The notes under the pieces were generated by a model. The model had not been told where the DNA came from, ran no database searches, and saw nothing but the letters and a program-made list of their open reading frames with translations. Positions 29,671 through 33,973 of a stretch of DNA of 64,000 bases are shown here, piece by piece. Each line of letters begins with the position of its first letter. Positions within the stretch are counted from its first letter, which is position 1. The translations under genes were made by a program, and so were the position numbers. Source of the stretch: Escherichia coli (GTDB lineage: Bacteria; Pseudomonadota; Gammaproteobacteria; Enterobacterales; Enterobacteriaceae); assembly GCF_003334815.1 (NCBI RefSeq), contig NZ_QOWO01000009.1. One strand, 5' to 3'.

Positions 29671-30920
<1,250 letters not shown>

Positions 30921-31097
30921 TAAAGTAAGTAACTGGTTAATTTACATTCTGGTCGCGTGCGCAAATACGCTTTTCCTCACACAGTTGTCAAGTGTTACGT
31001 TTAGATAATTGCTATCCGGAAAAGCATCTGCTATTTATAGCGGCCTCATTTTTCCCCCGAACATGGGGATCGATAGTGCGTGTTAAGGAGAAGCAAC

Positions 31098-31553
31098 ATG
31101 CAAGAAGGGCAAAACCGTAAAACATCGTCCCTGAGTATTCTCGCCATCGCTGGGGTGGAACCATATCAGGAGAAGCCGGGCGAAGAGTATATGAATGAAG
31201 CCCAGCTGGCGCACTTCCGTCGTATTCTGGAAGCATGGCGTAATCAACTCAGGGATGAAGTCGATCGCACCGTTACACATATGCAGGATGAAGCAGCCAA
31301 CTTCCCGGACCCGGTAGACCGTGCAGCCCAGGAAGAAGAGTTCAGCCTCGAACTGCGTAACCGCGATCGCGAGCGTAAGCTGATCAAAAAGATCGAGAAG
31401 ACGCTGAAAAAAGTGGAAGACGAAGATTTCGGCTACTGTGAATCCTGCGGTGTTGAAATTGGTATTCGCCGTCTGGAAGCGCGCCCGACAGCCGATCTGT
31501 GCATCGACTGCAAAACGCTGGCTGAAATTCGCGAAAAACAGATGGCTGGCTAA
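31098..31553 (+). CDS. dksA: RNA polymerase-binding transcription factor DksA
   Basis: Track ORF 31080..31553; trimmed to M7 [24 protein letters not shown]..., 151 aa, AGGAG Shine-Dalgarno, C4 zinc finger [25 protein letters not shown]. Confidence 0.95.
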
Positions 31554-31581
31554 TTACAGCCGTTCCATCACGTTTACCACA

Positions 31582-31609
31582 GGCGGGAAATGCTCCCGCC
31601 TTATTTTTT
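31582..31609 (+). terminator. dksA intrinsic terminator (leaky; upstream of gluQ)
   Basis: GGCGGGA-AATGC-TCCCGCC hairpin followed by TTATTTTTT (31601-31609). Confidence 0.75.
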
Positions 31610-31619
31610 GTTCAAAGAG

Positions 31620-32516
31620 ATGACAGACACACAGTATATTGGCCGCTTCGCCCCCTCTCCTTCCGGCGAGCTTCATTTTGGCTCTCTGATCGCCGCGCTC
31701 GGCAGCTATTTGCAGGCTCGCGCCCGGCAAGGTCGCTGGCTGGTACGCATAGAAGATATCGACCCGCCTCGTGAAGTTCCCGGTGCCGCAGAAACTATCC
31801 TGCGCCAGCTGGAACATTACGGTCTGCACTGGGACGGCGATGTTCTCTGGCAATCGCAACGTCACGACGCCTATCGTGAAGCACTCGCCTGGTTACATGA
31901 ACAAGGACTAAGTTATTACTGCACCTGTACGCGTGCGCGTATTCAAAGCATTGGCGGTATTTACGACGGTCATTGCCGGGTGTTGCATCATGGACCAGAC
32001 AACGCCGCAGTGCGTATCCGCCAGCAGCATCCGGTCACGCAATTTACTGACCAGCTGCGCGGCATTATTCACGCCGACGAAAAACTGGCACGGGAAGATT
32101 TTATCATTCATCGCCGTGATGGGTTGTTCGCCTACAACCTGGCTGTTGTGGTTGATGATCATTTCCAGGGCGTTACAGAAATAGTGCGTGGGGCTGATCT
32201 GATTGAACCAACAGTAAGGCAAATCTCGCTGTACCAGCTTTTTGGCTGGAAAGTGCCAGATTACATTCATCTGCCGCTGGCGCTTAATCCACAAGGCGCT
32301 AAACTTTCCAAGCAGAATCATGCGCCTGCGTTGCCGAAAGGCGATCCACGCCCGGTACTAATCGCGGCACTTCAATTTCTGGGGCAGCAGGCAGAAGCAC
32401 ACTGGCAGGATTTCAGCGTCGAGCAAATCCTTCAGTCAGCCGTCAAAAACTGGCGGCTTACCGCCGTGCCCGAGTCGGCAATTGTAAATTCAACATTCTC
32501 AAATGCGTCATGCTGA
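31620..32516 (+). CDS. gluQ: glutamyl-queuosine tRNA(Asp) synthetase (GluRS paralog)
   Basis: Track ORF 31590..32516 (308 aa) starts at an ATG inside the dksA terminator hairpin; called from the downstream ATG at 31620 ([23 protein letters not shown], 298 aa); class I aaRS HIGH-like motif. Confidence 0.75.
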
Positions 32517-32575
32517 GCTATGATTAGCCGCTATTTTTTTGTCCTGAATGATGTTTGACACTACCGAGGTGTACT

Positions 32576-33973
32576 ATTTTTACCCGAGTCGCTAATTTTT
32601 GCCGCAAGGTGCTAAGCCGCGAGGAAAGCGAGGCTGAACAGGCAGTCGCCCGTCCACAGGTGACGGTGATCCCGCGTGAGCAGCATGCTATTTCCCGCAA
32701 AGATATCAGTGAAAATGCCCTGAAGGTAATGTACAGGCTCAATAAAGCGGGATACGAAGCCTGGCTGGTTGGCGGCGGCGTGCGCGACCTGTTACTTGGC
32801 AAAAAGCCGAAAGATTTTGACGTAACCACTAACGCCACGCCTGAGCAGGTGCGCAAACTGTTCCGTAACTGCCGCCTGGTGGGTCGCCGTTTCCGTCTGG
32901 CTCATGTAATGTTTGGCCCGGAGATTATCGAAGTTGCGACCTTCCGTGGACACCACGAAGGTAACGTCAGCGACCGCACGACCTCCCAACGCGGGCAAAA
33001 CGGCATGTTGCTGCGCGACAACATTTTCGGCTCCATCGAAGAAGACGCCCAGCGCCGCGATTTCACTATCAACAGCCTGTATTACAGCGTAGCGGATTTT
33101 ACCGTCCGTGATTACGTTGGCGGCATGAAGGATCTGAAGGACGGCGTTATCCGTCTGATTGGTAACCCGGAAACGCGCTACCGTGAAGATCCGGTACGTA
33201 TGCTGCGCGCGGTACGTTTTGCCGCCAAATTGGGTATGCGCATCAGCCCGGAAACCGCAGAACCGATCCCTCGCCTCGCTACCCTGCTGAACGATATCCC
33301 ACCGGCACGCCTGTTTGAAGAATCGCTTAAACTGCTACAAGCGGGCTACGGTTACGAAACCTATAAGCTGTTGTGTGAATATCATCTGTTCCAGCCGCTG
33401 TTCCCGACCATTACCCGCTACTTCACGGAAAATGGCGACAGCCCGATGGAGCGGATCATTGAACAGGTGCTGAAGAATACCGATACGCGTATCCATAACG
33501 ATATGCGCGTGAACCCGGCGTTCCTGTTTGCCGCCATGTTCTGGTACCCACTGCTGGAGACGGCACAGAAGATCGCCCAGGAAAGCGGCCTGACCTATCA
33601 CGACGCTTTCGCGCTGGCGATGAACGACGTGCTGGACGAAGCCTGCCGTTCACTGGCAATCCCGAAACGTCTGACGACATTAACCCGCGATATCTGGCAG
33701 TTGCAGTTGCGTATGTCCCGTCGTCAGGGTAAACGCGCATGGAAACTGCTGGAGCATCCTAAGTTCCGTGCGGCTTATGACCTGTTGGCCTTGCGAGCTG
33801 AAGTTGAGCGTAACGCTGAACTGCAGCGTCTGGTGAAATGGTGGGGTGAGTTCCAGGTTTCCGCGCCACCAGACCAAAAAGGGATGCTCAACGAGCTGGA
33901 TGAAGAACCGTCACCGCGTCGTCGTACTCGTCGTCCACGCAAACGCGCACCACGTCGTGAGGGTACCGCATGA
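32576..33973 (+). CDS. pcnB: poly(A) polymerase I
   Basis: Track ORF 32555..33973 begins at a TTG; the annotated 465-aa protein ([22 protein letters not shown]) corresponds to initiation at the in-frame ATT codon at 32576, the non-canonical AUU start reported for pcnB. Confidence 0.8.

Follow-up and report, generated by a model that had tools for sequence, protein, structure and literature searches.

The closest described counterpart of the locus considered here is the dksA-gluQ-rs region of Shigella flexneri 2457T, studied by Caballero et al. (2012; BMC Microbiol 12:226; PMC3542578). In that strain, the distance counted from the dksA stop codon to the first annotated codon of gluQ is 39 bp, a second AUG follows 27 nt downstream, and the terminator hairpin was given a ΔG of -14.7 kcal/mol. 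RT-PCR placed dksA and gluQ on one co-transcript, and a lacZ fusion extending from the dksA coding sequence to gluQ codon 5, but lacking the dksA promoters, had only baseline activity; therefore, in the conditions used, gluQ has no promoter of its own. A fusion that stopped at +527, short of the hairpin, was approximately 10-fold more active than one that contained the hairpin, and mutations in the stem raised expression of the downstream lacZ reporter more than 2-fold. When a His-tagged protein was produced with the native intergenic region in place, Edman sequencing gave the N-terminus expected for initiation at the second ATG, for which the authors noted no obvious Shine-Dalgarno sequence. 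They also reported that E. fergusonii lacks the methionine codon in the loop. The reporter and N-terminal experiments were carried out in S. flexneri with plasmids, and with T7-driven overexpression for the Edman sample, rather than at the native E. coli locus.

For E. coli MG1655, the relevant published data come from a Term-seq study (Adams et al., 2021; eLife 10:e62438; PMC7815308), in which a 3´ end was found at 160097(-), with 3,097,035 reads at OD 0.4 and 254,767 at OD 2.0. Supplementary file 3 of that study lists this end, at +15, under "ORF-internal" for gluQ. Here, we compare these observations with the dksA-gluQ boundary in a 64,000-nt stretch of E. coli DNA (contig NZ_QOWO01000009.1, hereafter the window) and with the same locus in other Enterobacteriaceae.

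Anatomy and conservation of the dksA terminator

From 30216 to 33973, the + strand of the window carries sfsA, dksA, gluQ (yadB/gluQRS) and pcnB in this order, as read from the sequence, the list of open reading frames and the RefSeq annotation. The features of the dksA-gluQ boundary are collected in Table 1. The longest gluQ ORF in the program-made list runs from 31590 to 32516 and encodes 308 aa. It begins at a first ATG (ATG1); a second one (ATG2, 31620-31622) is in frame with it, 27 nt downstream. In Escherichia, dksA and gluQ also share a reading frame, 66 nt apart, with only the dksA TAA intervening (31551-31622). We treat this shared frame as a coincidence, the spacing being no multiple of 3 in most other genera.

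Table 1. Features at the dksA-gluQ boundary, in window coordinates
Feature	Position	Strand	Description
dksA proximal promoter (inferred)	31009..31045	+	TTGCTA, 17 nt, TATTTA; transcription start near 31045
dksA CDS	31098..31553	+	151 aa; stop TAA 31551-31553; from the ORF list and the RefSeq annotation mapped from two loci (L001 and L089)
Terminator hairpin	31581..31601	+	5´ arm AGGCGGGA (31581-31588); loop AATGC (31589-31593); 3´ arm TCCCGCCT (31594-31601)
ATG1	31590-31592	+	start of the 308-aa ORF, within the hairpin loop
T-tract	31601..31609	+	TTATTTTTT; 7 T in 8; read from the sequence
Leader	31610..31619	+	GTTCAAAGAG; 10 nt, A/U-rich, from the T-tract to ATG2, no Shine-Dalgarno sequence
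gluQ (gluQRS/yadB) CDS from ATG2	31620..32516	+	298 aa; stop TGA 32514-32516

The hairpin lies 28 nt behind the dksA stop codon and can be written A-GGCGGGA / AATGC / TCCCGCC-T, with a stem of 8 bp, six of them G-C pairs, and a loop of 5 nt. Folded alone it has an energy of -14.5 kcal/mol, and it is the dominant feature of the fold of its 91-nt context (z = -2.4 versus shuffles). A scan of 30800-32700 for consensus terminators ranked it as the top site (8 pairs, 6 G-C, 7 T in 8). As the preliminary description had proposed, ATG1 falls inside the loop, and the next in-frame ATG comes just past the U-tract, 10 nt after its last T. A second hairpin, in which the U-tract would pair with AAAGAGAUGA, was rejected; it reaches only -3.9 kcal/mol, consists of A-U and G-U pairs, and its sequence is not conserved in other genera.

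The mapped MG1655 3´ end falls within this element. The 61-nt context printed by Adams et al. (2021), TACAGCC...TTGTTCAA, is window 31555-31615; 160097(-) is accordingly at 31605, within the T-tract and +15 from the annotated ATG1. Over windows of 800 nt, DirectRNA-seq coverage fell from 250 upstream to 62 downstream when bicyclomycin was omitted, and from 250 to 72 in its presence; the Rho score was 1.16 ("No"), and the intrinsic terminator score was 7.47, with 3.0 as the cutoff (Adams et al., 2021; PMC7815308). These data show that the E. coli dksA terminator is efficient yet incomplete and does not depend on Rho. The downstream-to-upstream ratio of approximately 0.25 suggests a rough upper estimate of read-through, crude because it comes from 800-nt coverage windows and is confounded by mRNA stability, and the reporter data point to approximately 10%. 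Term-seq or a Northern blot for read-through, and the N-terminus of GluQ, had been named beforehand as checks on the arrangement, and the S. flexneri results answer these checks as well as the refuting conditions set with them. With a short, G+C-rich stem-loop, a U-rich tract directly 3´ of it, an in vivo 3´ end in the U-tract and independence from Rho, the hairpin and T-tract (31581-31609) are a Rho-independent, partly leaky terminator of dksA.

Conservation was assessed in the window together with the loci from one scan of species-representative genomes, which were 80 in number and all from Enterobacteriaceae (81 species); upstream analyses have n = 80, because one locus (L053) is too short upstream. 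The core GGCGGG...CCCGCC precedes gluQ in 75 of the 80 species, while the 28-70 nt to either side vary freely. This pattern, together with the 3´ end mapped in vivo in the T-tract, argues that the hairpin is there beyond chance. The six core pairs are invariant, and four flanking or inner pairs have changed on both sides in a compensatory manner, with pair 7 going from A-U to G-C in four distinct sequences, among other changes. In the stem alignment 92.7% of cells are paired, compared with 52-65% when the partner is slid. The end of the core stem lies 13-28 nt before the gluQ start. Of 5,425 complete E. coli genomes, 3,024 carry exactly the same 91 nt at this site, and in the six variant genomes compared the common change is CAG/CAC (Gln/His) at gluQ codon 7 (window 31638), with the hairpin invariant. 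The T-tract is weak in the Enterobacter group (TTGTTACCG), and termination efficiency may therefore differ between genera.

Some loci of Citrobacter, Kosakonia, Phytobacter and Enterobacter carry extra sequence between the dksA stop codon and the conserved hairpin, such that the dksA stop codon and the gluQ ATG are 86-151 nt apart. The extra sequence lies 60-150 nt 5´ of the gluQ start (L012, L015, L021, L028, L030, L034, L039, L041, L045, L050, L051, L066 and L069). Part of it holds further GC-rich inverted repeats, such as GGCGCACCGC...GTGGTGCGCC in L050 and L051, and in Phytobacter-type loci the hairpin is of another, weaker kind (CGGGGAAAATTTCCCG).

The gluQ start codon

The evidence considered here leads to ATG2 as the true gluQ start, and ATG1 is not the functional one. 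The Edman result, although obtained in S. flexneri, places the start at the second ATG and not at 31590 (Caballero et al., 2012; PMC3542578). The RefSeq (PGAP) gluQRS start is the equivalent of 31620 in the three E. coli genomes that we mapped coordinate by coordinate, including an MG1655 assembly, and the annotated gluQRS CDS is 897 nt long in six further genomes. The chains in PDB entries 1NZJ and 4A91 have 298 aa and begin MTDTQY; residues 11-308 of the long ORF match 1NZJ_A/4A91 over their full length, with no mismatches in the printed alignment. GluQ homologues carry PF00749, a HIGH-type motif, HFGS, is readable in the translation, and GluRS chains of 470-490 aa are matched by GluQ over the catalytic half only. 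Judged by these matches, the gluQ product is GluQRS (glutamyl-Q tRNA(Asp) synthetase, YadB), with a GluRS-type class I catalytic domain and without the anticodon-binding domain.

The species comparison independently favors ATG2, as well as conservation of the hairpin. An ATG stands at the position equivalent to ATG2 in all 81 species. The loop is itself variable; across the 81 species and the Escherichia lineages, E. coli, Escherichia sp. E1V33 and E. albertii alone have an in-frame ATG in it. In Escherichia sp. MOD1-EC7003 the loop ATG is present but put out of frame by a 1-nt deletion in the T-tract, and it is absent from E. whittamii (AATAC) and from AF16, an "E. coli" isolate of 93% identity (ATTAC). 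Among the 81 species, ATG1 is absent from every genus other than Escherichia, and at least eight genera have an in-frame stop codon between the hairpin and the gluQ start. Upstream in-frame ATG, GTG or TTG codons occur in 46 of 80 loci at positions that are not conserved, as expected of chance extensions.

The start at ATG2 lacks a recognizable ribosome binding site. The preliminary description had pointed to AAGAGA before 31620, a proposal that fails here. AAGAGA abuts ATG2 with zero spacing, anti-Shine-Dalgarno pairing of the leader amounts to only -1.7 kcal/mol, compared with -9.2 kcal/mol for the strong Shine-Dalgarno sequence of dksA (duplex energies), and no Shine-Dalgarno sequence was found in the 20 nt before the gluQ start in any of the 81 species (median +0.6, best -4.0 kcal/mol). 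An in-frame TTG at 31608 was considered as a start and rejected; it has no Shine-Dalgarno sequence (+1.9 kcal/mol) and conflicts with the Edman sequence.

Could ATG1 nonetheless be a genuine alternative start, giving a 308-aa isoform when ribosomes or high temperature melt the hairpin? ATG1 is in frame with ATG2 with no stop codon between them, and the Shine-Dalgarno-like AGGCGGGA, 2-9 nt 5´ of ATG1, would pair with -6.3 kcal/mol. The Shine-Dalgarno-like GGCGGGA is, however, the 5´ arm of the stem, such that it and ATG1 are both enclosed in the -14.5 kcal/mol stem-loop. Gene models also begin at ATG1, both in the annotation on which Adams et al. (2021; PMC7815308) relied and in large clusters of 308-aa GluQ predictions in ENA-derived data, but the 10-aa extension of these proteins is the translated 3´ arm and T-tract, and an unrelated extension, MTGGSFPALFFIARS, arises in the same way in Salmonella-type sequences. 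Furthermore, three of the five non-reference Escherichia lineages compared, and every other genus, have ATG1 missing or out of frame, the crystallized 298-aa form has the whole catalytic domain, and the ATG2 product was the only one seen by Edman sequencing (Caballero et al., 2012; PMC3542578). We regard a functional ATG1 as extremely improbable.

The practical value of this conclusion is a warning about annotation. The 308-aa start persists in at least one annotation (Adams et al., 2021; PMC7815308) and in thousands of automatic predictions, and the first 10 residues of that form are merely a translated terminator arm and T-tract. Over-extended GluQ predictions include two 308-aa clusters, with 3,737 and 3,667 members, and one of 313 aa with 2,833; the cluster proteins with over-extended N-termini are P0001, P0002, P0031 and P0027. 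In the 313-aa form, the added residues come from translating the hairpin and T-tract that Salmonella-type sequences carry between dksA and gluQ (loci L025 and L026, 1456-1500). A wrong start has consequences: Adams et al. (2021; PMC7815308) label the end of the dksA terminator in their Term-seq table as internal to gluQ, an artifact that arises because the annotation used began gluQ at ATG1.

Several other starts and ends in the region deserve mention. For pcnB, the equivalent of the RefSeq start is window 32576, which reads ATT, while the mechanical ORF list gives TTG at 32555. A non-canonical AUU start for pcnB was reportedly described by Binns and Masters in 2002. Upstream of dksA, an "orphan" Term-seq 3´ end at MG1655 160652(-), with 48,011 reads at OD 2.0, corresponds to window 31050 (Adams et al., 2021; PMC7815308), and may be the end of the sfsA transcript or of transcripts from distal dksA promoters. 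A weak hairpin, CTGCTATTTATAGCGG then CCTCATTTTT, spans 31028-31053 and overlaps the inferred dksA proximal promoter and transcription start.

Source and possible control of the gluQ transcript

The dksA promoters are the source of the read-through dksA-gluQ transcript. We placed the proximal promoter by mapping the numbering of Caballero et al. (2012; PMC3542578) onto the window, with +1 at 31045, and read its hexamers off the sequence. The two numberings agree throughout, with +509 at 31553 (the last base of the dksA stop codon), +527 at 31571, +590 at 31634 and +1469 at 32513.

The main alternative for the origin of this transcript is a promoter belonging to gluQ itself, stress- or sigma-E-dependent and located in or near the intergenic region, with read-through as a secondary source. 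Two matches in the window resemble such a promoter. The first, at 31586-31616, is a weak sigma-E-like GGAAATG-19 nt-TCAAA; the usual sigma-E spacer is 16 ± 1 nt, and we rejected the match as a promoter because its 19-nt spacer is too long. The second, a sigma-70-like TTCAAA-18 nt-TATATT at 31611-31640, was also rejected, since initiation would fall near 31647, past ATG2 and within the coding sequence, with no other usable start downstream; moreover, its -10 element consists of the conserved codons for Q/H-Y-I. The sequence from the hairpin to the ATG is in any case not conserved between genera. A sigma-24 recognition site for gluQ is listed in RegulonDB according to Caballero et al., who state no experimental evidence for it, and a gluQ mutant has an osmotic-stress phenotype, but their fusion from the dksA coding sequence to gluQ codon 5 without the dksA promoter remained at baseline (Caballero et al., 2012; PMC3542578). 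A separate gluQ promoter thus appears very unlikely, a view founded, where E. coli is concerned, on the reporter results from S. flexneri. The earlier proposal that gluQ is expressed mainly by read-through from dksA is accordingly borne out by the co-transcript, the baseline activity of the promoterless fusion and the effect of the hairpin in S. flexneri, with "mainly" holding for standard growth.

Whether read-through itself is controlled is a separate question. The hairpin might be part of a regulated switch, in the form of a riboswitch-like element, an attenuator controlled by a protein or sRNA, or an operator that controls translation from the start close by. The stem sequence is conserved and, in every species, a gap of 13-28 nt separates it from a start that has no Shine-Dalgarno sequence. 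Two measurements invite the same thought. In S. flexneri, the intergenic RT-PCR signal rose 20-fold in stationary phase, against 1.3-fold for dksA and gluQ (Caballero et al., 2012; PMC3542578), and in E. coli the Term-seq count at the terminator was 12-fold lower at OD 2.0 than at OD 0.4, although such counts are not normalized between conditions (Adams et al., 2021; PMC7815308). Both could reflect regulated read-through, but they were not normalized for that purpose. Caballero et al. (2012; PMC3542578) left regulated read-through possible, while their own search for a riboswitch was negative. The region likewise shows none of the marks of a riboswitch or leader-peptide attenuator that we looked for: Rfam gave no relevant match to the hairpin region at the gathering score or at E <= 1, the minimum-free-energy and centroid folds contain no competing helix or alternative antiterminator pairing, and the spacer between the dksA stop codon and the stem, only 28 nt in E. 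coli, varies between genera. Our literature search found no later work on gluQ-rs regulation. We consider a regulated switch unlikely. The same holds for a combined scheme, in which a factor acting on the conserved GGCGGGAG/CTCCCGCC stem would regulate read-through, for example by raising it in stationary phase or under osmotic stress, and the hairpin would also set gluQ translation; it seems to us improbable to a similar degree. If true, it would amount to two-level control linking glutamyl-queuosine modification of tRNA-Asp to the stringent response.

Elsewhere in the window, Rfam matches above the gathering score were the CssrA sRNA (136 bits, 908-1017, - strand), t44 RNA (83.5 bits, 1856-1942, - strand) and the HtrA 5´ UTR thermometer (77 bits, 10813-10858, - strand).

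An integrated reading and related systems

We put at roughly 90% the probability of a reading that combines a dksA terminator ending near 31605, minority read-through serving as the gluQ mRNA, translation from ATG2, and an accidental ATG1. In this model, most transcripts from the dksA promoters would end in the T-tract, at approximately 31605. A minority, perhaps 10-25% as estimated from the coverage and reporter data, would read through and constitute the only known gluQ mRNA. Ribosomes would then begin at ATG2, behind a short, A/U-rich and unstructured leader that lacks a Shine-Dalgarno sequence, to give the 298-aa GluQ, and we suggest that the unstructured A/U-rich leader and the U-rich tract help initiation, for example via ribosomal protein S1. 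ATG1 would be an in-frame ATG that arose by accident in the loop in the Escherichia lineage, sequestered in the stem with the Shine-Dalgarno-like GGCGGGA. The combination of a leaky terminator with a Shine-Dalgarno-less start would be expected to make GluQ far scarcer than DksA and to leave its transcription bound to the dksA promoters. The physiological meaning of coupling gluQ to DksA, like the size of the read-through fraction, is inferred.

The arrangement is already known from S. flexneri (Caballero et al., 2012; PMC3542578), and it is consistent with current RefSeq annotation. Published data establish the co-transcription, the lack of a separate promoter in standard media, the effect of the terminator on reporters, the N-terminus, the position of the 3´ end and its Rho independence. 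The present analysis documents the anatomy of the boundary, its conservation and the family-wide absence of a Shine-Dalgarno sequence, and it goes beyond the 2012 paper only in the 81-species comparison and in the link to the E. coli Term-seq data. The dksA-gluQ pair is a clear example of how a leaky terminator and a Shine-Dalgarno-less start can make an abundant regulator and a rare tRNA-modifying enzyme of one operon differ greatly in expression, although the principle is well known.

The S. flexneri 2457T terminator, whose published description fits the window base for base, and that of the window have the same anatomy, with the first AUG in the loop, the second AUG 27 nt further on, and dependence on the dksA promoters. 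The hairpin energies are -14.7 kcal/mol in the S. flexneri paper and -14.5 kcal/mol in the E. coli window; the window matches E. coli genomes and the strain of the paper is S. flexneri, and we see no biological difference between them. Two further systems are known to us through their treatment by Caballero et al. (2012; PMC3542578). In the E. coli rpsU-dnaG-rpoD operon, which those authors offer as an analog, T1 is, like the dksA-gluQ hairpin, a partial intrinsic terminator within an operon, and dnaG downstream of it resembles gluQ in encoding a low-abundance enzyme and in having an unusual Shine-Dalgarno sequence; the operon differs in its genes and in having additional internal promoters. 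In E. coli recA-recX, recX is, like gluQ, expressed by read-through of an upstream terminator, which accounts for approximately 10% of recX transcription. recA-recX is a different locus with no start-codon ambiguity inside its hairpin, unlike the dksA-gluQ boundary, where the terminator loop holds the ATG at which gluQ has so often been made to begin.
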